Shown here piece by piece: positions 1 through 9,906 of a stretch of DNA of 11,347 nucleotides. A model generated the notes under the pieces. The model was not told the origin of the DNA, made no database searches, and worked only from the letters and a program-made list of their open reading frames with translations. The stretch is from a virus: UHGV virus genome UHGV-1347074; one strand, given 5' to 3'. Position numbers and translations under genes: made by a program. Position 1 is the first letter of the stretch, and each line of letters begins with the position of its first letter.

Positions 1-57
1 ATATAACGAGCCCCTCCTAAGGGCTAGTTGCAGGTTCGATTCCTGCAGGGGACACCA
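1..57 (+). tRNA. argW: tRNA-Arg (anticodon CCU), 3' portion only; the 5' end lies upstream of the window
   Basis: Anticodon stem-loop agccc/CTCCTAA/gggct at 9-25 with anticodon CCT at 16-18; T-arm gcagg/TTCGATT/cctgc at 30-46; acceptor 3' strand plus discriminator and CCA ending at 57. Matches from memory the E. coli argW sequence, with one possible difference. Confidence 0.85.
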
Positions 58-217
58 TGAACACCTCCCACAAAGTCCAACTTAGTACGTAACTCATTGA
101 TTTTAATTCATACATCTTATTTTATTCGTCCAGTAAAGTGCCATTATTTCTAATGGAATCTATACATCTTTGCGTATAACATTGTGTATAACTGAGTTCG
201 ATCTTTTTTCTATACAC

Positions 218-1393
218 ATGCTGCTATCTGACATCCAAATAAAAAGAGCAAAACCGAAGGACAAACCCTATACGCTTAACGATGGTATGGGACTATCACT
301 CCTCATCGACACAGCGGGCAGCAAAGGCTGGCGTTTCCGCTATCGCTTTGCAGGTAAGCCAAAGATGATTTCCTTTGGTGTATATGGCGATGTGTCGTTG
401 GCACAGGCACGTACCAAACGTGATGAAGCGCGTTCGATGTTGGCCAAAGGGATCAACCCAAGTGAAGCCAGAAAGGCAGATAAGATTGCTTTGCAGTTCG
501 CACATGAGAACAGCTTTGAGTCTGTGGCCAGAGAATGGCACTCATCGAAAAAAGCCACCTGGTCAGAGGGGTATGCAAAAGAGGTTCTCAATTGTATGGA
601 AAAGGATATTTTTCCTTTTATCGGCCAGCGCCCAATTGAGCAGATTGAACCACTAGAGCTGCTAACCGTCCTGCAAAAAATAGAGAAAAGAGGTGCGCTA
701 GAGCAAACCAGCAAGATCCGCCGCCGTTGTGGTGAAGTGCTTCGTTATGCTGTTGCCACTGGCAGAGCAAAGTATAATTTTGCACCCGATTTAGCTATCG
801 CACTCAACAAACCTAAAACTCAACACTTCCCGTTCCTGACTGAAAGCGAGTTGCCCGAGTTCGTCAATGCTCTGGATAACTATCAGGGCAGTTTAGTCAC
901 CAAATACGCCACGCAGCTGTTGATGCTAACAGGCGTGCGAACAATTGAACTACGTGCAGCGGAATGGGCTGAGTTTGATTTAGATAATGCCTTATGGGAG
1001 ATCCCCAAAGAACGGATGAAGAAACGCCGCCCCCATCTGGTTCCGTTATCTACTCAGGCGATCAGCATCCTGAAAAAGCTGCAAGAAATAACTGGGAATT
1101 ACAGCCTCGTTTTCCCTGGGCGAAACGACGTCAGGAAACCAATGAGCGAAGCCAGTATCAACAAAGTGATAAAGCTGCTTGGCTATCATGGTCGGTTAAC
1201 GGGTCACGGCTTCAGGCATACCATGAGTACTATTTTGCATGAACATGGTTTTGAAAGCGCCTGGATTGAAATGCAGCTTGCGCATGTTGATAAGAACTCT
1301 ATTAGAGGGACTTATAATCATGCGCAGTATTTAGAACCGAGAAGAAAAATGCTAACGTTTTATAGCAACCTTATATATAAATCATATATATGA
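218..1393 (+). CDS. int: Tyrosine site-specific integrase, P4 family (about 392 aa from the first ATG)
   Basis: N-terminus from the ATG at 218 (MLLSDIQIKRAKPKDKPYTLNDGMGLSLLIDTAGSKGWRFRY...) matches the conserved P4-type integrase N-terminal domain. C-terminal catalytic region has HGFRH ... LAHVDKNSIRGTYNHAQYLEPRR (box II and tyrosine). The ORF-track start at 170 is a TTG and was not used. Confidence 0.9.
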   Translation: MLLSDIQIKRAKPKDKPYTLNDGMGLSLLIDTAGSKGWRFRYRFAGKPKMISFGVYGDVSLAQARTKRDEARSMLAKGINPSEARKADKIALQFAHENSFESVAREWHSSKKATWSEGYAKEVLNCMEKDIFPFIGQRPIEQIEPLELLTVLQKIEKRGALEQTSKIRRRCGEVLRYAVATGRAKYNFAPDLAIALNKPKTQHFPFLTESELPEFVNALDNYQGSLVTKYATQLLMLTGVRTIELRAAEWAEFDLDNALWEIPKERMKKRRPHLVPLSTQAISILKKLQEITGNYSLVFPGRNDVRKPMSEASINKVIKLLGYHGRLTGHGFRHTMSTILHEHGFESAWIEMQLAHVDKNSIRGTYNHAQYLEPRRKMLTFYSNLIYKSYI

Positions 1394-2443
1394 TCTTTTT
1401 ATATCCGTTAAAATAGTATCTACATCGGTAAATGTTATGTTTATACAATCAATTAACTCAAATACTTGCTCTTCAATAAGAATAAAATCATTTTTTGGTC
1501 CAGTACTAATTTTTATACCAAGATCCCCAACTTTCTCCAATAAACTAACCTGATGATTTGTGTAAATATATTTTCCTCCGGGCTCTGTTATCTCTCTATT
1601 TGCAGAAAAAACAACATCAGCTATCGCATCAACTTTTAGCTTATACGAAGAAGAAACAGTAACATCACCTTTCTTCGAAAGTGGGAATATTAAACTATAC
1701 CATTTATATATATTCACCTTGTCTGGAGAAATAAACTTTCGTTTGTTTATTTCTGCATTCATATAATCTCTAAACATATTTAGATGTGAAATATGATTTG
1801 TTAGATTACTATTTTTTACGCCAGCTTTATAAGTCAACAACGCTATTCCAATACCACCAACGGTGGTGATCAATGTAATCAACCATGCTATTGACTGAAG
1901 GATAATTGATATGCCATTAAATCTACCAAAAAAGTAAGAAACACACTTATCTGATAGGCAAAATTCTTTCACATACAGTTTTTCATTATAGATCGTAATG
2001 CATAGTATGATGAGACAAGAAATGATACCAAGCATAAAAATAGCAAGGATAGTAATAACCAAGACTTTTAGCTCTTTTTCTTTCCCAAAATCCCCCAAAG
2101 GTAATTTATTAACCAAAGAACTAGTAATTTTATAAATATAAATAATAGTAGTTTTAATGCTCTTTATTAAAGCTGAAGGAGAATTAAGAACAAAGCAATA
2201 CAATGTATTAGCTAAAAATTTAACTCGTATAAAAATAAAGCTTCCTCTAATCTTTACCTTCCTATATTTTCTTTTTAGTTCAAATACTATTTTTCTACCT
2301 TCATCTGTCCCCAGAAGAACTAATCCAATATGTGATACTATATCCCTTAAGCTAACTCCCACCCCAATAAACGCCTTATGAAAAGATGACAAACTGCGTT
2401 TGAGAGATTCATAATTAGATTTTATTTCAGCTAAGCTACCCAT
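1382..2443 (-). CDS. Predicted two-transmembrane-helix membrane protein, candidate retron effector (353 aa)
   Basis: Two long hydrophobic segments (VLVITILAIFMLGIISCLIILCITIY and ISIILQSIAWLITLITTVGGIGIALLTY) separated by a short loop. Its ATG shares one base with the RT stop (TGATG on the - strand), indicating translational coupling. Very AT-rich, like the RT gene. Confidence 0.75.
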   Translation of the reverse strand: MGSLAEIKSNYESLKRSLSSFHKAFIGVGVSLRDIVSHIGLVLLGTDEGRKIVFELKRKYRKVKIRGSFIFIRVKFLANTLYCFVLNSPSALIKSIKTTIIYIYKITSSLVNKLPLGDFGKEKELKVLVITILAIFMLGIISCLIILCITIYNEKLYVKEFCLSDKCVSYFFGRFNGISIILQSIAWLITLITTVGGIGIALLTYKAGVKNSNLTNHISHLNMFRDYMNAEINKRKFISPDKVNIYKWYSLIFPLSKKGDVTVSSSYKLKVDAIADVVFSANREITEPGGKYIYTNHQVSLLEKVGDLGIKISTGPKNDFILIEEQVFELIDCINITFTDVDTILTDIKRSYI

Positions 2444-3639
2444 CAGTATTTAACCTTTTGAAGACGATCTCTGAATCCTTTTTCAATCAATAAAAAACCG
2501 GGAGTTCTTCTTAAAATAATAAGATTATATAGTGTAAGATCATATTTTTTCTTGTAATAATCTTTTTTAGAGTTCCCACCTTTATAGGAGTTCTCTAAAA
2601 ATTTAATAGCCCTATCAATTTTAACAATATCTCTTTTTGCTGCCTTAGGCTGAATATCTTTTAGTCTTAATGATAGCACCTTATATTTATTGTGATTAAG
2701 CCTACCTAATTTGTTCACGCGCCCAACACATCTATTATACTCTATCCTATAGGCTACACTTGTTATTGAGTTATTTTTCTTTGCCAGTTTTTCTAAATTA
2801 TGCACAGACGCTCGAATACGTCCGACCTCATCAGAAGGTAAGCGTGGTTCATTAAATGAGATTCGTAACCCATGTACTTTTAATGATTCAGTTGATATAT
2901 TGTGTACTTGAGTTTTATCTTCATTTATAGGTAAATCTTTACCAGCAAGCATATCTTTAATATGATCTAAAATCTGATTCATATTGTAGTTAACTAATTT
3001 TGATGAAACTGTAATATCATCTACCAGTCTCGTATAGACTAATTTCTTCCTTTCTGCTCTATTTACAATGTCAGATTCAACATCAAAAAGACATAACGAT
3101 GCTATATAACTAGAGGTCAAAGCGCCCTGAACAATAGTGTCGTCATAACAGCATATATCAGTTAAGTACTCTAATGCTTCGCCTTTAAATTTTAAAACCT
3201 TAGAAAATATACTATATACTATATCTCTATGAATATTATCAAAAAAATTTTTGATATCTACTTTAAGTATTGTTTTTGCATTACAGTGCTTACGGGCACA
3301 AGCGATATAATGCCGCTCAATTCCTTTTTTTTTCTCATCTTTATTGGTTGGAACTGAGCCATAAATGTAATCTGGCCATAATATCAGCTCTTTAAAGATC
3401 CTATTGTTTATCCTTTTTTGAATACGCCTTATTAGCTGGTGTGGATCATAAACATCTCTAAGTTCACCATTTATTTTTTTTACTTGCTTTTTCTTGTATC
3501 TTTGGTGGGAAGGCATTGCAATAGCAGTTTTTAAATCTGCTAACGTAATATCCAAGCAAGAACTTAAAGATTGCAAAGATCTGAGAGATTGTGCACCAGG
3601 TTTTTTTATAGGATTACGGGCAACCATAATATCTTCCAT
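2443..3639 (-). CDS. Reverse transcriptase, retron-type (398 aa)
   Basis: RT motifs readable in the translation: ILKVDIKNFFDNI (motif A aspartate), ICCYDDTIVQGALTSSYIASL (motif B), YTRLVDDITVSS (motif C) and a downstream KVHGLRIS at the position of the retron VTG motif. Overall pattern resembles Ec86-type retron RTs from memory. Confidence 0.85.
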   Translation of the reverse strand: MEDIMVARNPIKKPGAQSLRSLQSLSSCLDITLADLKTAIAMPSHQRYKKKQVKKINGELRDVYDPHQLIRRIQKRINNRIFKELILWPDYIYGSVPTNKDEKKKGIERHYIACARKHCNAKTILKVDIKNFFDNIHRDIVYSIFSKVLKFKGEALEYLTDICCYDDTIVQGALTSSYIASLCLFDVESDIVNRAERKKLVYTRLVDDITVSSKLVNYNMNQILDHIKDMLAGKDLPINEDKTQVHNISTESLKVHGLRISFNEPRLPSDEVGRIRASVHNLEKLAKKNNSITSVAYRIEYNRCVGRVNKLGRLNHNKYKVLSLRLKDIQPKAAKRDIVKIDRAIKFLENSYKGGNSKKDYYKKKYDLTLYNLIILRRTPGFLLIEKGFRDRLQKVKY

Positions 3640-3960
3640 TCCATGAAATCAAAATTACATCCGGCCTCCCTCATACTCAAGTGGGCAAAAGAATAGGGTT
3701 GCTTTCGTCAAAAGCCCTTAGCAACTGCCCCTATTCTTTGACCGGACGCAATTGAGGACGGCTACAGCCCCATCGTTGCCGGCCAGGCTTTGTGGGGGTT
3801 CCGTTCCAGCCTATGCTACTGCATAGGCGCTCTCACTTTTCTGTTGCGAGAGCGGAAGCTAAGAAACTATAAACTTTGACTGCCACAGGCAAACGGAACG
3901 TTTGCGCGAAGCAGATATTACCATTGATGTTTCTAGTTTCAAGACTTAACTAGCATTTTT
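3640..3960 (-). ncRNA. Candidate retron non-coding RNA (msr/msd) upstream of the RT; boundaries approximate
   Basis: No ORF of 60 aa or more on either strand. Cluster of stable hairpins: 11-bp stem 3688-3698/3729-3739; 8-bp stem with tetraloop 3809-3816/3821-3828; 7-bp stem 3828-3834/3848-3854; 7-bp stem with GAA triloop 3889-3895/3899-3905. G+C is higher than in the adjacent RT gene. The a1/a2 inverted repeats could not be located. Confidence 0.35.
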
Positions 3961-4299
3961 CACATCACCTACCAAAATTGTAATGGACTGACCAAAAAGG
4001 CACTACACCGCACCCGCCTGCGGTTTTCATATCACTAAAATTTTTCAGTTGTGATTTTTTACAAACGATACCGCCAGCCCGCGCCCGTGCTGGGGATACA
4101 CTGCGAGGCAGGAACTGAAAAGAATGAAAAGAAATTCAGCTTTTTTCAGTTTTACTGTCCGTAGTATCTATGGCCTGAATACGCAACTCTATGATATTAA
4201 ATGGATAATTATTTTTAGGTGTGTGATTTTATGAAGTTTTGGAAACATGAAAAACATAACAAATTGAAAAATAATAATTTTATGTCCGTATAAACTGAA

Positions 4300-4340
4300 A
4301 TCCGGTGTTCAGGTTCCGGGAATGGATCGGCCATTCCCGA
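4300..4340 (-). terminator. Candidate transcription terminator downstream of the Ogr/Delta gene
   Basis: 9-bp perfect hairpin cgggaatgg/ccattcccg (4316-4340) just 3' of the stop at 4349 on the - strand, followed by a moderately U-rich stretch (AUUUCAGUUUAUA). The U-tract is not immediately adjacent, so this is a weak call. Confidence 0.3.
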
Positions 4341-4348
4341 CGCATACT

Positions 4349-4621
4349 TTACCCATTCTTTTGCGCAGCCAGCAGCAACTTTAAAGCCTTTTCCCGTTCC
4401 TCGGGTGGAATTGCATCAATTAGCTCTTTAACCCTCCCCTGCCCGTTCAGCGCGCTTGGACTAACGGAATGGGAGAAAGCAACATTCATCACAAACGAGT
4501 GACCGCACTCCACATTAGAGCAATAGCAGTACACATCGTACAGTTGTGGGTGTTTCCTGTTTGTTTTACCTATCCGCGCTACTGCCTGACATGTGGGGCA
4601 GTACATTCTCATCATCTTCAT
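4349..4621 (-). CDS. Ogr/Delta-family zinc-finger late-gene transcriptional activator (single-domain, about 85-90 aa)
   Basis: C-x2-C-x22-C-x4-C spacing (MYCPTCQ ... YCSNVECGHSF) as in P2 Ogr / P4 Delta. The start is ambiguous among several in-frame ATGs (4621 to 4606); homology favours MYCPTCQ. Confidence 0.85.
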   Translation of the reverse strand: MKMMRMYCPTCQAVARIGKTNRKHPQLYDVYCYCSNVECGHSFVMNVAFSHSVSPSALNGQGRVKELIDAIPPEEREKALKLLLAAQKNG

Positions 4622-4903: not shown

Positions 4904-7591
4904 TTACTCAGGTTCGGCGCTTCCCAGTACCTGTGTATTGAACTGGTACACACGTTTAAGCCCTATTTCTGGCAGGCGAATGCTGTTTTGCGTCCGGCCA
5001 TCTTCACCGGGTTTCAGCCAGCCCGCGTCCACACACAACCTGGCCACCTTACGCGAATCAAATCCCTTACAGATCTCCTTCCAGCCTGACGGGAGAACGT
5101 AGAACGTCACAACCGGCTCTGTCACGTTGTCTCCTTTATCGACTTTTCTGAATCCCATCATTGAAACAGGCCGGTTCCTGTCGTCATTCCAGTCAGCAAA
5201 CCGACTGAACTGATTACGCGTCATGAAGTCCCGTACCTGTTCAAGTGCCGCTTTATCTTCCTGATTAGCTGTATGGCCCCGGTCAGCCATCCATGCAGCC
5301 AGACAACTTTGAGCGGCACGAAAGGCCTCTCCCTCCGGCCATCCTGTGATGCCCGCTTTTGTGGCCAGCTCCCCGGCCATAGCAACCAGAGCAAAACGGG
5401 TAACAGCCCGGCCAACCTGATTCCCGGCATTTTCCGGCGTCAGCCTCCGGGTGTACTCTTTCAATAAGGCTTTCGCCTGGCTGGTCAGTTCCGGCAGATC
5501 AGCGGTCAGGCAATGCAGCCAGTCGCGGAATGGTGCACCATGATAATGCGCTACATGCTGCTCAAGATGCTCAGCCAGGGTTTTCCCGCTACTGAAGCCA
5601 TGAAGTTCTTCAAACACGCCATACTTGCCCGAATCGCTTGGGATCTGGATCATTCTGACCTCAACCCCGGCATACGTACGTTCCCCGGCGCTTGCCGCAT
5701 GTTCTACCAGTGACAGTTCCCCGGTGGACAGAAACAACAGATTCCAGCGGTTGGTTTCCCTTACAGAACCATCTGTTCTGGCTCTGGCTTTGCCCTGCCC
5801 GTTAGCCAGCATATAAGCGATATTCCCCGCCTCCCTGCCGTCAACCTCCCGGATTTCATCCAGCATCAGCGTGGCATCATTGCGGCGGCTCGCCGTTCCT
5901 TCTAAGGCATTCCCCGTCGCCCGCCACGTATGCCAGAAATCTGTTCCACCACATACTGATGCAGCCACTTTCATCGTCGTGGTTTTGCCGTCCGTCGATT
6001 CCCCTTTGAGGTGATAACCTCCACCGCCGATACCAACCAGTTTCAGAAGGGGGGCAGCAAATGCCAGGCTCACCGCAAAGGCCAGACGGGCATTCTTTAT
6101 GCAGTAACGGCCAAGATTTTCACGCCATTCCTCTGATGTACCGCTGACACGAAAATCACGCCCCTGCACGCTCGATGTTTGTAAGATGACTGACTGGGCT
6201 TCGCGCCCTATCACTTCATCCTGGAGAACGTAAACCCCGCCGTGCCAGCCCGTTTTATTTACACAGGTAACTTTTCTGTCCGGTTTACACAGCGAGATAT
6301 ATTCCATCAGGAATGCTCTGGCCATACCGTTAATGTTGATGTAAGAAAGCCCGTTAACCAGCAGAACGCGGCGCAGTTCTTCCCCGCTGCCACCCAGCAT
6401 CTCCATCGGCATTGCCCATTTACGGCTGTTTCCGTTGGTATCTTCCCATTCCAGCAAACGCCCGTAATTACTCCCATCAGCATCACTGGTGATTGCCGTC
6501 ACCCGCAACGGGCTGCAAATTTTGATATTGCGTATCTCCGTATCACCATCAGACTTATTAACCAGCTTGTCGTACCACAAATATTCTTTTGTCAGCCGGA
6601 ACCCTTCTGGTAAACGGGTCTGCCCTTTGCCATGCAGCGTCATTTCTTCACGAAAGGCATCTCTCGCCCGTTCTTTCCCCACTTCCTGCCGATAGTCATC
6701 CCAGTCAGCCTTATGGCGTACCGGAGGGAGCGTTACCCAGCCATCCACCGCTTTGGCGGCTTTCTCTGCCTGAATACGCCCGGTGTTTTCTTTCCCGTCA
6801 GCCAGATCATTATCTCCGGCCAGAATGATCCGGGTTTCCGGCCAGCGTTTTCGGATCTGCTCCGTCACCTTCAGTAAATTGGTGGCAGCGACAGCCGCCA
6901 CGATCCATCCTTCAGTCAGCAGACTGACGGTAAGCGCCGTGGCAAAACCCTCAGTGATAATCACCTGTTCAGGTGTTTCAGCGGGTATATCGGTCAGGGC
7001 AATGAATGCGCCAGACAGCTGGCTACCGGGCAGCAGACTTTTATCCCCGTCAGGATTGATAAGCTGACCACCGGTAATATTCCCGGAAATATCCGTCAAC
7101 GGCAGCAGTAATGAACCGGAGGAAAATGTTATTCCGGCCAGATTCAAAGGTTGTGACAGCAAGGGAAGTGAATACCCGTGTAAGCCCTTGTTTGTCAGAT
7201 AGACCGGCTCACCATTGCAGGACTGCTGTCTGAGTCTGGTATATCGCTCCGCACCCGCTTCTTTTCCTGTGGCCTTTTTCCTAGCGGGCAAAGCGGGCTT
7301 CTCCTGTATTTCTGGTAATGCAAGCGCCTCAGATACCATCCCGGCGGCTTCTTTTATCTTTCTTCCTGTCACCAGACGAACCAGATCAAGACCATCGCCA
7401 TGACCGCACTGATTACAAAACCACGTCCCACGCCCCGCTTTATCGTCCAGTCGAAAGCGATCTTTGCCACCACAGGCAGGGCAAGCCCCATGATGTCCTG
7501 CGGACGGTACTTTGATACCTAATGCTGACAGGATATAAGGCCAGCGCCCAATCGCAGCCCCGGAAATAGTGGATACAGACAGTGTTTTCAC
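4904..7591 (-). CDS. Alpha-type DNA primase-helicase (895 aa): zinc-binding domain + TOPRIM primase + P-loop helicase
   Basis: N-terminal CPACGGKDRFR ... WFCNQCGHGDG zinc-binding motif; TOPRIM-like ITEGFATA ... ILAGDND; Walker A GESTDGKT. GTG start at 7591 preceded by AGGAGG (7-nt spacer) and overlapping the upstream gene's stop (GTGA). Confidence 0.9.
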   Translation of the reverse strand: MKTLSVSTISGAAIGRWPYILSALGIKVPSAGHHGACPACGGKDRFRLDDKAGRGTWFCNQCGHGDGLDLVRLVTGRKIKEAAGMVSEALALPEIQEKPALPARKKATGKEAGAERYTRLRQQSCNGEPVYLTNKGLHGYSLPLLSQPLNLAGITFSSGSLLLPLTDISGNITGGQLINPDGDKSLLPGSQLSGAFIALTDIPAETPEQVIITEGFATALTVSLLTEGWIVAAVAATNLLKVTEQIRKRWPETRIILAGDNDLADGKENTGRIQAEKAAKAVDGWVTLPPVRHKADWDDYRQEVGKERARDAFREEMTLHGKGQTRLPEGFRLTKEYLWYDKLVNKSDGDTEIRNIKICSPLRVTAITSDADGSNYGRLLEWEDTNGNSRKWAMPMEMLGGSGEELRRVLLVNGLSYININGMARAFLMEYISLCKPDRKVTCVNKTGWHGGVYVLQDEVIGREAQSVILQTSSVQGRDFRVSGTSEEWRENLGRYCIKNARLAFAVSLAFAAPLLKLVGIGGGGYHLKGESTDGKTTTMKVAASVCGGTDFWHTWRATGNALEGTASRRNDATLMLDEIREVDGREAGNIAYMLANGQGKARARTDGSVRETNRWNLLFLSTGELSLVEHAASAGERTYAGVEVRMIQIPSDSGKYGVFEELHGFSSGKTLAEHLEQHVAHYHGAPFRDWLHCLTADLPELTSQAKALLKEYTRRLTPENAGNQVGRAVTRFALVAMAGELATKAGITGWPEGEAFRAAQSCLAAWMADRGHTANQEDKAALEQVRDFMTRNQFSRFADWNDDRNRPVSMMGFRKVDKGDNVTEPVVTFYVLPSGWKEICKGFDSRKVARLCVDAGWLKPGEDGRTQNSIRLPEIGLKRVYQFNTQVLGSAEPE

Positions 7592-7998: not shown

Positions 7999-8227
7999 CG
8001 CGCATCTCTCCCTTAATTGTGCTGGTTTCCTTAACAACGCCATCAAGTTGTTCGGCAATACAGGCCACTAAAGCCGCAGCGCCTTCCGCTGAAACAGTTC
8101 TCGCTCCATTCACTGTGGGAACGGACAGGACCTCTGCAAGAAACTCACTGGCCAGTGCCGCCCGTAACAGACGACTCTCACCCAGTTCGCTCAATATGCA
8201 GCCTTGCTTAAAATTCATGGATTTCAT
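7991..8227 (-). CDS. Hypothetical small protein (78 aa)
   Basis: ATG at 8227 preceded by GGAGGTG with a 5-nt spacer; overlaps the upstream gene stop (ATGA) and the downstream gene start. No recognisable motif. Confidence 0.6.
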   Translation of the reverse strand: MKSMNFKQGCILSELGESRLLRAALASEFLAEVLSVPTVNGARTVSAEGAAALVACIAEQLDGVVKETSTIKGEMRDE

Positions 8228-8427
8228 GCAACCACCTCCCCGGCACTTTTCACAGGGATGTGGGCAGCAAAGCTCAGGATAAATTCAGTGGCAAGTTTAA
8301 GGCGTGCAGCATGCTCGCAGTCTGCGATTACACGCACAGGACGTGGACGGGCATCACGGTCTGTACGGCGAACAGCCAGAAAGACAAAGATAAATTCAGG
8401 GTGAGATAAAGCAGGGACTGTAGCCAT
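8224..8427 (-). CDS. Hypothetical small protein (67 aa), first ORF of the replication operon (positionally analogous to P4 kil, function unknown)
   Basis: ATG at 8427 preceded by GGAGG with an 8-nt spacer. The ORF track extends this frame to 8814 (196 aa), but that extension crosses a repeat- and hairpin-rich leader and looks non-coding. Confidence 0.5.
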   Translation of the reverse strand: MATVPALSHPEFIFVFLAVRRTDRDARPRPVRVIADCEHAARLKLATEFILSFAAHIPVKSAGEVVA

Positions 8428-8429
8428 AA

Positions 8430-8725
8430 TGGCAACCTCCGTTAGATAGCGGGTAACGCTACCACCGGAGTTCCTACGCTCATGGGTGGTAGCCCAGACG
8501 GGGGTAGGAATACCGGCTCTAACGGATACCGGCCAGCCCGAAAGCTGCCCCGCCTGGACTACCATAATTCTGATGATGTGGCGTAAAAAATAAAAACATG
8601 CAGTCAGCCACCACACCATAAATTTTAGGTGAGTCAAAGCTACGACACAAAAAAACACGCCTGGCGCGTGTTGTGTCGCCGTTAGATTACACGGGTTCCT
8701 ACGCCCGGCTGCCGATTTTGCGGCA
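8430..8725 (-). ncRNA. Candidate structured leader / immunity RNA region (P4 CI-RNA-like; Rfam C4-type), boundaries approximate
   Basis: Direct repeats CCGTTAGAT...GTTCCTACGC at 8439-8479 and 8679-8708. An internal segment (8499-8516, containing GTAGGAA) is largely complementary to both copies. Strong hairpins at 8458-8466/8485-8493 and 8643-8678. Confidence 0.3.
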
Positions 8726-8733
8726 ACCTTTAA

Positions 8734-8763
8734 ACTATATCCCGCGCATTCCTGGTGAGGCAA
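8734..8763 (-). promoter_or_regulatory. Candidate sigma70 promoter for the leader and replication operon
   Basis: On the - strand, TTGCCT (-35; + strand 8758-8763), an 18-bp spacer, then TATAGT (-10; + strand 8734-8739). Predicted start near 8726, just upstream of the first repeat copy. Confidence 0.3.
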
Positions 8764-8866
8764 GAAATTTATAACCGAAAACTGAACATTGCCTGGATTA
8801 ATTAACGCTGGCATGCTTAAGCCTCTGCTTAAAAATAGTTCTTCATTTTTCCTGATGCTGTAAACG

Positions 8867-8901: not shown

Positions 8902-9906
8902 TCAATCAGCAAACGTCAGGGCGCTCTCATCAACAGCCGCGTACAGTTCAGGTTCACCGAGTGCATAGCCTTCATTGCGCAGGTAGGAATGTACGTATTC
9001 ACTGTTTTCATCATCAAACTCAGCACGAAACCACCGTGTTATCGCCTGAGTGTAAATATGCAGATTATTCAGCGTCGTTACTGCCAGACGCTTACCCGGC
9101 ATAAACGGGGGAATAAACGCAAAGCGGCCAGCAACAGAACTTGTAGCCATCTGTGCAGCATTCACATCAGCCGGGCGGTCTGCGGCATTAAATAACTTCA
9201 GGCGTTGATGTGCTGCCAGCTCTGCCCCAACCAGAACAACCAGACGGGGATCTTCACGAAACTGCTCAGCAATAAGCTCAGTAATCAGATGGTTGGCCAT
9301 CGCATCAATATTTTTCCAGGTGCCAGTCTCTCCCAGCGTGACAGGCTCAGAGATGATTTGCTTTCCGTTCCCGTAGGCTTTCGCCAGTGCATGCCAGCCA
9401 ATATTGACATCCTCGCCTTTTTTATTGATTTCCGGGTTTGTAGTATTTGCAATCGACACACCATTGAAACCGACCCGCAGCATGTCCAGCGCATATGCCT
9501 GGGCAAAAAAGCTCTCAACCGTTTTCTCAAACCCATCCGGCACGCCGGTATGGTAAATATGAGACATATCGGAATAGCTGATCCGGGCGCAGGTATCCGT
9601 CTCTGTCAGAAAGAACTCCGTACCATTGATTGCCATTTTTTTGTGGAAACGGCCACCATCCACACGTCCGGTATGCAGTTCACTGGCACCAATATTGACT
9701 GCATTACCTGACACGGCGTTAACATCACGTAGCGTGATATTTTTAATAAGCCACCCGGATTCCAGAATTGACGTACGCAGTATATTTTCAGTGGGTTCGC
9801 TTAATGCAAAGCGTCTTTTTGATTCCTCCTGATAGTTAGTGCCAGTAACGAATTTATTATGATAACGACGTGCTGCGTCCGGCCTTTCAGTTTTGAAGGC
9901 ATACAT
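8902..9906 (-). CDS. P2 GpN-like major capsid protein homolog (334 aa)
   Basis: Several blocks align by eye with P2 gpN as recalled from memory: GFNGV, DV.(I/V)GW, EDPRLVVLVGAELAA (vs EDPDLVVIVGRQLLA) and TTLNNLHIY (vs TKLENLSIY). ATG at 9906 preceded by GGTGA. Confidence 0.7.
   Translation of the reverse strand: MYAFKTERPDAARRYHNKFVTGTNYQEESKRRFALSEPTENILRTSILESGWLIKNITLRDVNAVSGNAVNIGASELHTGRVDGGRFHKKMAINGTEFFLTETDTCARISYSDMSHIYHTGVPDGFEKTVESFFAQAYALDMLRVGFNGVSIANTTNPEINKKGEDVNIGWHALAKAYGNGKQIISEPVTLGETGTWKNIDAMANHLITELIAEQFREDPRLVVLVGAELAAHQRLKLFNAADRPADVNAAQMATSSVAGRFAFIPPFMPGKRLAVTTLNNLHIYTQAITRWFRAEFDDENSEYVHSYLRNEGYALGEPELYAAVDESALTFAD

Follow-up and report, generated by a model that had tools for sequence, protein, structure and literature searches.

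Retron-Eco6 (Ec48) is a type IV retron of Escherichia coli (Millman et al. 2020). It encodes, in this order, a non-coding RNA (ncRNA), a reverse transcriptase (RT) and an effector with two transmembrane segments (2TM). The same order is found in the locus described here, which lies in a stretch of 11,347 nt of the UHGV virus genome UHGV-1347074 (the window). Retron-Eco6 is reportedly also described by Mao et al. 1997 and Mestre et al. 2020.

Defence by Ec48 requires RT activity and the transmembrane helices of the effector; it is triggered by lambda Gam, T7 gp5.9 or loss of RecB, and its outcome is abortive infection (Millman et al., bioRxiv 10.1101/2020.06.21.156273). Triggering of Eco6 by Gam was reproduced in 2025. 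The length of the DNA made by reverse transcription (RT-DNA) in Eco6 and its dependence on RNase H1 were established by Palka et al. (PMC8989520). The substitutions VHG and CAxxH, found in place of the usual RT motifs VTG and NAxxH, were reported for RT-Eco6/Ec48 by Simon et al. (PMC6868368).

Segment 3942-3628 of the minus strand (-) is read here, with high confidence, as the promoter and ncRNA of a type IV retron (Ec48/Retron-Eco6 family) carried as hotspot cargo by a P4-like satellite. The locus is a divergent member of a retron family that is already known. Besides gene order, it shares with Retron-Eco6 the motifs VHG and CAxxH (LKVHGLRI and IACARKHC, read in the translation of the RT), a carrier related to temperate phages, and an RNA homologous over its full length (hairpins A, B and C, msd stem-loop, GUAGCC motif, helices P1-P2-P3 and S1-S3). 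It differs by its RT (55% identical), by its effector (43% identical over 218 aa, with an N-terminal extension of ~120 aa not found in the 235-aa Eco6 effector), by the sequence of its msd stem-loop, which is weaker, and by its carrier, a P4-like satellite hotspot instead of a P2 prophage. Type VI (Retron-Vpa2, hybrid RNA) and type V (Retron-Sen1/Se72) retrons belong to the same RT clade 3; they also have a long multi-arm RNA whose 3′ segment folds back onto the msr-msd arm, and clade 3 responds to triggers linked to phage recombination or to RecBCD. In contrast to them, the window RNA contains no open reading frame (ORF) for a small protein, no helix-turn-helix gene is present, the effector is a separate 2TM protein, and the type IV reference makes multicopy single-stranded DNA (msDNA) constitutively. 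Retron-Eco1 (Ec86) likewise places a promoter-proximal structured RNA before its RT gene, with msr hairpins, then an msd stem-loop, and with a long-range helix closing the msr-msd domain. However, in Ec86 the branching G and the first templated base both adjoin the a1/a2 stem, whereas in the window S1-S3 ends ~25 nt 3′ of the homologous template start, this start falls within P1, and the closing helix has its 3′ strand in the P2 loop.

The hairpin-rich region and its conservation

A preliminary description had singled out the region 3640-3960 as non-coding, dense in hairpins and a likely site of retron template RNA. The four stem-loops that it listed all exist on the minus strand. That at 3688-3739, a perfect inverted repeat with two 11-nt arms (100% complementary), is helix P2; those at 3809-3828, 3828-3854 and 3889-3905 are hairpins C, B and A. 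RNAalifold recovers hairpins A, B and C, with compensatory changes in relatives. The absence of a sizeable ORF and the elevated G+C content were also borne out: the longest ORF in any frame of 3640-3990 has 29 aa, and G+C is 0.46-0.48 against ~0.30 in the RT gene. Folding of the minus strand, which had been proposed as a check, gave -114 kcal/mol (z-score -3.93; 1 of 100 dinucleotide shuffles equally good); for the plus strand, the z-score against shuffles is -3.25. Two long-range inverted repeats had been overlooked, 3753-3740 / 3666-3653 and 3887-3858 / 3722-3700. The attribution to a retron template RNA is upheld by the type IV RT and Ec48 effector encoded downstream and by homology of the RNA to the Eco6 ncRNA.

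Around 160 loci were gathered by RT homology from genomes, viral contigs and metagenomes. Model R1 is a covariance model of the whole RNA (284 positions; its training set includes the window). It matches the window at 3625-3908 (292.6 bits) and the Eco6 locus of strain EC93 with 186.7 bits, and 130+ other loci are matched at positions 1-284; in 143 of the ~160 loci the match is complete (positions 1-284), on the strand of the RT and ends at the RT start codon. The RNA is kept in Pseudomonas, Vibrio-like and Marinobacter genomes. Model R3, restricted to the 3′ domain, was built from 18 relatives whose RT is <=55% identical to that of the window. An unfiltered scan of the whole window with R3 gives 3654-3752 (-) with 74 bits (E-value 4.5e-17), and the next match has 16 bits. 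The covariance-model check suggested earlier thus has two outcomes: Rfam, which holds no fitting family, gives no match, whereas family-specific models, including one trained without the window, match strongly.

Covariation was analysed in 90 non-redundant sequences aligned to the model and in A2, a structure-agnostic MAFFT alignment of 11 sequences; duplex energies of own versus foreign partner strands served as an alignment-independent control. In the larger set, standard pairs occupy 92.5% of pair cells, against 35-47% when partners are slid, and 54/57 pairs show changes on both sides. A2 agrees with this picture. Compensatory changes are found in eight helices. Hairpin A is paired in 96.8% of cells (100% on A2), with 6/7 pairs doubly changed. 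Hairpin B is 92.8-100% paired (5/6 pairs doubly changed; closing G-C invariant in 84/84) and hairpin C 99.7% paired (4/4).

The helix S1-S3, made of three segments, joins the single-stranded stretch past hairpin A to the interior of P2 and is found by RNAduplex in 90/90 sequences. Its energy is -21.7 kcal/mol with the own partner and -12.2 kcal/mol with foreign ones (own better in 90/90). S1, S2 and S3 are paired at 98, 97 and 89% in 86 sequences; on A2, S2 is 100% paired (4/6 pairs doubly changed) and S3 94% paired (5/11). The strands of S3 are wholly different between subfamilies, yet complementarity is kept: AGUUUCUUAGC/GCUAAGAAAUU, AAAUUGUCAGU/GCUGACAAUU, CAUCCGCUGGU/UUCAGCGGAUG, GAACCCUUUUA/UUAAAGGGGC. 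S1-S3 closes the whole msr-msd domain, as a1/a2 do in other retrons. The internal loop between S1 and S2 is kept in sequence in all 90 relatives (UGC-x-GCA-RUYGA opposite UCGAU-GAA-x-GCA); this conservation suggests a protein-binding or kink-type motif.

The 3′ domain contains three helices, modelled as a three-way junction. P1 is 95% paired, with 13/13 pairs doubly changed (-17.6 versus -7.7 kcal/mol for own and foreign partners; own better in 89/90). P2 also covaries (-12.8 versus -4.3 kcal/mol; own better in 90/90). P3 is 99% paired, with stem variants CCC/GGG, CUC/GAG and UCC/GGA, and its loop sequence is kept from Enterobacteria to Pseudomonas and Vibrio-like relatives. P3 is likely a protein-recognition element and may bind the RT.

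Two other pairings were rejected. GCUGC/GUAGC, proposed by RNAalifold between the segment following hairpin A and the linker, shows variants without covariation and no preference for the own partner; pairing of the P2 5′ strand with hairpin B, hairpin C or the msd flank shows no such preference either. Among the remaining segments, none was found in the 90 sequences to be complementary in a partner-specific way to either the linker or the P2 5′ strand. In L006, L010 and other Pseudomonas loci, the P1 3′ arm UGGUCAAACCUAUU, within the last ~40 nt before the RT, can also pair with the following AAUAGGGUUU. This alternative hairpin (9-10 bp) overlaps the ribosome-binding region; it may be a switch between P1 and a hairpin controlling translation.

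In 11 relatives with an RT identity of 55-87%, the upstream sequence can be aligned all the way from a conserved sigma-70 promoter to the RT start. Their -35 variants are TTGAAA/TTGATT/TTGCTT, followed by a ~17-nt spacer and a TG-extended -10 (TGnTAnnAT) at a fixed distance from a conserved GCGCA. The spacer and the 6-8 nt past the -10 vary freely. GCGCA is invariant thereafter, and the 5′ end of the RNA is therefore placed at ~3908-3906. The ncRNA has a length of ~280 nt and leads straight into the RT gene.

Operon and satellite cargo

The RT ORF (398 codons) matches Pfam RVT_1 and is assigned to PADLOC RT_IV (603.6 bits, 4.1e-182, residues 15-398); RT_V and RT_VI rank next. It stays below the NCBIfam cut-offs for the St85, Ec67 and TIR-retron families (121.1 vs 235, 87.3 vs 450 and 95.3 vs 600); these matches reflect general retron-RT similarity only. 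Two in-frame ATGs are present (MEDIMVARN...), at 3627 (394 aa) and 3639 (398 aa). The start is probably at 3627, because nearly all homologues have 394 aa. With this start, a conserved AUGGA ~10 nt upstream forms a weak ribosome-binding site.

The effector matches NCBIfam NF038235 (retron_Ec48_2TM; 217 bits, cut-off 65) and PADLOC 2TM_IV (2.4e-87, residues 121-353). The effector ORFs of relatives range from 226 to 353 aa; either the N-terminal extension is variable among relatives or the true start is internal. The RT and effector ORFs share one base at 2443. Both genes lie downstream of the RNA in one predicted operon, under the same promoter.

Gene and RNA family matches identify the whole window as a P4-like phage satellite. 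Two ORFs of the minus strand, 2443-3639 and 1382-2443, make up a low-GC cassette (~0.30 G+C) between the integrase gene and the Ogr/Delta-type gene. In megablast searches against 475 complete E. coli genomes, P4-type backbones match the window at 3990-4350 only (91-96% identity), and window 1382-3989 has zero matches in the same genomes. Because the backbone matches stop at 3990, the cassette and its upstream non-coding DNA are assigned to hotspot cargo with a boundary at ~3989. The structured element ends at ~3908, the cargo-specific DNA at ~3989, and P4-type backbone follows.

The cassette of RNA, RT and 2TM gene is also found in one P2 prophage, in P4-like elements and in other chromosomal contexts; the RNA goes along with the RT, not with P4. 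In close relatives from Enterobacteriaceae (RT 82-99% identical), the cassette lies again within P4-like elements. Defence hotspots of P4-like satellites were reportedly described by Rousset et al. 2022. The present locus has the same layout, a low-GC defence cassette between integrase and Ogr/Delta-type genes with shared backbone flanks. Nothing in it is unusual, the retron being one more cargo type. The cargo is a complete three-part retron defence system (RNA, RT and membrane effector).

Template start, priming and alternative readings

The closest studied relative is the locus of E. coli EC93 (L001), whose RNA region shows homology to the window RNA from end to end. It lies inside a P2 prophage and is annotated in RefSeq with a 'retron Ec48 family effector membrane protein' beside the RT. 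L001 is Retron-Eco6, because three published sequences map to it. It contains, letter for letter, the primers with which Kong et al. (PMC8563936) cloned Ec48. The Eco6 ncRNA of a retron census (PMC10849725, supplement 3) is identical to it except for a few single-letter differences, attributed to the supplement having been read by machine. The sequenced Eco6 RT-DNA (GTACGTAATGTCGTCGGCTACGG...) is, over its first 65 nt, the exact reverse complement of L001.

The 5′ end of this RT-DNA (GTACGTAAT...) places the first templated base in the 5′ arm of P1 in EC93, at the C that precedes GGUC (at the junction of UUACGUAC and GGUC). This C aligns with window C3744, and its stem-loop with 3784-3756. By transfer from Eco6, the msDNA of the window would be the plus-strand sequence from 3744 to ~3791-3795 (GGACGCAATTGAGGACGGCTACAGCCCCATCGTTGCCGGCC...). 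The 48-nt product of Eco6 spans the stem-loop GUCGUC..CUACG-AUGGUGC-CGUAG..GACGAC and folds as DNA into a 13-bp hairpin (-11.1 kcal/mol, z-score -2.66). In the RNA, two alternative msd stems are possible, hairpin H (CCCCA/UGGGG) and hairpin H′ (loop AUGGGGC); H was discarded as the msd stem, as the Eco6 DNA folds as H′. A template start beside S3′ with G3859 as primer ('Model Z') was also discarded: the predicted DNA lacks a hairpin, and the start of Eco6 RT-DNA is 25 nt further 5′. The 48-nt distance of this model did fit the GUAGCC motif neatly in EC93, and the S1-S3 helix itself stands.

The preliminary description had found no convincing a1/a2 repeats and had left the priming guanosine undefined. 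This holds in that no canonical a1/a2 pair is evident beside a priming G; it does not hold for long-range pairings, which exist and are conserved but are unusually arranged. A covarying closing helix is present; it is not adjacent to the template start as mapped in Eco6. Three guanosines are candidates, and each has evidence against it. G3907 is invariant in 11/11 close relatives and lies 1-2 nt 5′ of hairpin A, as in Ec86. It coincides, however, with the predicted transcription start, and the sequence upstream of it has no partner-specific complementarity. G3662 directly follows the four inner pairs of P1. With it as primer, the start that is observed would be accounted for and the retron would be permuted; against it, most relatives have A in the homologous column. 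G3859, at the end of S3, is ruled out as primer by the Eco6 start site. Two other proposals failed. An a1 upstream of G3907 is not a conserved feature, its best partners being inconsistent in the 11 close relatives and no own-partner preference being seen in 90 sequences. P1 as a1/a2, with a branching G in the tail past the 3′ arm, finds no conserved G there, and the G of UUUUG pairs in a short extension of P1.

In the canonical layout, which follows the published Eco6 boundaries, a1 would lie immediately upstream of G3907, a2 would be the P2 5′ strand, and P1, P2 and S1-S3 would be incidental. The census ncRNA of Eco6 does span TTTTTGTTGC... to ...GCAGAGG (PMC10849725). A weak, wobble-rich pairing can be drawn in EC93 (UUUUUGUUG/UAGCAGAGG and UCUU/AAGA). 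The UUAG-CG context also resembles that of Ec86. However, the 24 nt upstream of the G pair equally well with own and foreign P2 5′ strands (-7.08 vs -7.07 kcal/mol; own better in 40/90), whereas P1, P2 and S1-S3 are all strongly partner-specific. The segment upstream of G3907 is moreover probably not transcribed, because a conserved promoter occupies it, and Eco6 RT-DNA begins 4 nt further 5′ than this layout predicts. The canonical layout is held to be quite unlikely. Another alternative is that the hairpins are a structured 5′ leader regulating translation of the RT and effector, with little or no msDNA at rest and msDNA made only on triggering, as with the 'hybrid RNA' of type VI. Such behaviour is known from the type VI retrons, which belong to RT clade 3 (bioRxiv 10.1101/2025.10.22.683967). 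In P1 and P2, the template start and its 3′ flank are paired with a stretch lying immediately before the ribosome-binding site of the RT, and one type IV retron of the census (Acinetobacter, entry 530) gave no RT-DNA by polyacrylamide gel electrophoresis (PMC10849725). That construct, however, rested on a predicted ncRNA that was maybe truncated, and Eco6, whose RNA is built in the same way, produces RT-DNA of 45-48 nt in abundance when no phage is present (PMC8989520; PMC10849725). A role as leader without resting msDNA is considered very improbable.

Next to no credit is given to the hairpins being part of the satellite backbone (regulatory RNA, packaging or attachment structure) instead of the RT cassette. 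The window is indeed a P4-like element (integrase, Ogr/Delta, primase, Ash, C4/isrK RNAs), and such elements bear structured regulatory RNAs. Nevertheless, the 475 E. coli genomes with P4-like backbones have no match over 3640-3989, the RNA accompanies homologous RTs in P2 prophages and in non-phage contexts, and it is conserved in Pseudomonas, Vibrio-like and Marinobacter genomes; these findings already refute this proposal. For the reading as a type IV retron RNA, several points remain unfavourable. All support for this locus is computational. Rfam release 15 (4227 families) gives no match in 3640-3990, even at E up to 10. P1, P2 and S1-S3 cannot all nest, because the S1-S3 3′ strand lies inside the P2 loop; a pseudoknot or switching between alternative folds is required. 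No helix with a family-wide conserved G was found beside the transferred template start, so that canonical priming cannot be drawn. The predicted msDNA of the window folds weakly (-7.4 kcal/mol, no better than shuffles). The effector carries ~120 additional N-terminal residues.

If the type IV retron reading is followed, the RNA's own promoter would drive transcription of the RNA along with the RT and effector genes. The RNA would start at ~3907 with hairpin A, followed by msr-type hairpins B and C, the msd stem-loop and the P1/P2/P3 junction, S1-S3 tying the 5′ region to the P2 loop. The RT would recognise this RNA, the P3 loop and the S1/S2 internal loop being candidate contacts. It would prime from the 2′-OH of a guanosine and, by homology with Eco6, copy ~45-52 nt, from ~C3744 to ~3791-3795. 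Host RNase H1 would trim the template and define the 3′ end, giving a small branched msDNA with a hairpin. As has been shown for Ec48, the RT-msDNA complex would keep the membrane effector inactive until it is triggered by phage proteins acting as RecBCD inhibitors (lambda Gam, T7 gp5.9); the triggered effector would then cause cell death by abortive infection.

A wider proposal, judged unlikely, is that priming in type IV retron RNAs, including this one, does not follow the canonical a1/a2 scheme. P1 and P2 would lock up the first templated nucleotides and their 3′ flank by pairing them with the stretch just before the ribosome-binding site of the RT, the separate covarying helix S1-S3 would tie the 5′ msr region into the P2 loop, and the branching G might lie 3′ of the template in a permuted layout. 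Reverse transcription would then have to open P1 and leave the P1 3′ arm unpaired. Synthesis of msDNA would be coupled to remodelling of the RT/effector mRNA leader, a logic near that of the type VI hybrid RNA.

The alignments show that the a1/a2 boundaries now used for Eco6 are not conserved across the family. Neither this nor the pseudoknotted arrangement is presented as new. No editing by Ec48 was obtained with a donor placed in a hairpin loop chosen by RNAfold (Kong et al., PMC8563936), and editing with Eco6 in the census was 0.2x that of Eco1 (PMC10849725). Non-conserved a1/a2 may explain poor editing with RNAfold-placed donors in type IV retrons. The family-wide RNA model (~140 loci, eight covarying helices) gives coordinates for the msd, P1-P3 and the closing helix, and opens the way in which clade 3 retrons prime to direct testing; interest lies there more than in the locus itself, for which it is moderate to low. 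As a divergent relative of Ec48, the locus could be assayed for its phage range and could serve as a compact supply of short RT-DNA.

Feature coordinates and neighbouring elements

Table 1. Features of the window. Retron features are listed first, from the promoter onwards. Remarks give the basis of the assignment and sub-elements.
Feature	Position	Strand	Remarks
Sigma-70-type promoter (predicted)	3942-3915	-	Consensus scan; -35 TTGAAA 3942-3937, TG-extended -10 TAATAT 3920-3915
Retron type IV ncRNA (msr/msd and structured leader), very probable	3628-3908	-	Covariance model R1; continuous with RT mRNA
Candidate priming G 1	3907	-	Homologue of G in Eco6 UUAG-CGCACC
Hairpin A (GCAAACG UUC CGUUUGC)	3889-3905	-	RNA 5′ end
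S1-S3, 5′ strand	3858-3887	-	S1 3887-3885, S2 3880-3875, S3 3868-3858; conserved internal loop GGCA 3884-3881
Hairpin B, msr-type stem-loop	3829-3853	-	
Hairpin C, msr-type stem-loop	3809-3828	-	
Stem-loop with conserved GUAGCC	3797-3756	-	GUAGCC at 3765-3760
Predicted msd	3744-3795	-	Eco6 transfer; first templated base ~C3744, end ~3791-3795
Msd stem-loop, loop AUGGGGC (predicted)	3756-3784	-	Alignment to Eco6
P1, 5′ arm	3740-3753	-	AAUUGCGUCCGGUC; outer part overlaps msd start
P2, 5′ strand	3728-3739	-	AAAGAAUAGGGG
S1-S3, 3′ strand	3700-3722	-	S3′ 3722-3713, S2′ 3712-3707, conserved GAAA 3706-3703, S1′ 3702-3700
P2, 3′ strand	3688-3699	-	
P3 hairpin	3667-3684	-	Conserved loop UUGAGUAU at 3680-3673
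P1, 3′ arm	3653-3666	-	GGCCGGAUGUAAUU
Candidate priming G 2	3662	-	In P1 3′ arm; pairs with C3744
Retron type IV RT	2443-3627	-	Pfam RVT_1, PADLOC RT_IV
Ec48-family 2TM effector	1382-2443	-	PADLOC 2TM_IV, NCBIfam NF038235
tRNA gene, 3′ part	1-54	+	Rfam tRNA, 33.7 bits
P4-type tyrosine integrase	170-1393	+	Family match
Ogr/Delta zinc-finger gene	4349-4621	-	
Primase/DUF927 gene	4904-7591	-	
Ash-family gene	8224-8814	-	
C4/isrK antisense RNA module	8482-8740	-	Rfam
P2-family capsid gene	8902-9906	-	

The tRNA gene is cut by the window edge, and no complete tRNA is found by ARAGORN; its 3′ part and the adjoining P4-type integrase gene are likely the attachment site of the satellite. Within 8482-8740 (-), C4 antisense RNA (81 bits) and isrK (71.8 bits) are matched, together with a c4 a1/b1 target element slightly below its gathering score (43.7 bits). 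Their position is within the 5′ part of the Ash-family ORF and immediately downstream of that part. This set is an antisense immunity module of the P1/P7/P4 type, intact in the satellite.

The EC93 locus contains, at L001 4667-6211 (+), a second 'RNA-directed DNA polymerase' gene (514 aa), divergent and ~550 bp from the Eco6 RT gene; the P2 hotspot of EC93 carries two RT-based systems side by side. In the window, the weak second match of R3 (16 bits, E-value 0.02) lies at 4058-4165 (-), in P4 backbone past the cargo boundary, and is probably due to chance. The same segment holds a GC-rich inverted repeat and direct repeats (TGAAAAGAA, twice).

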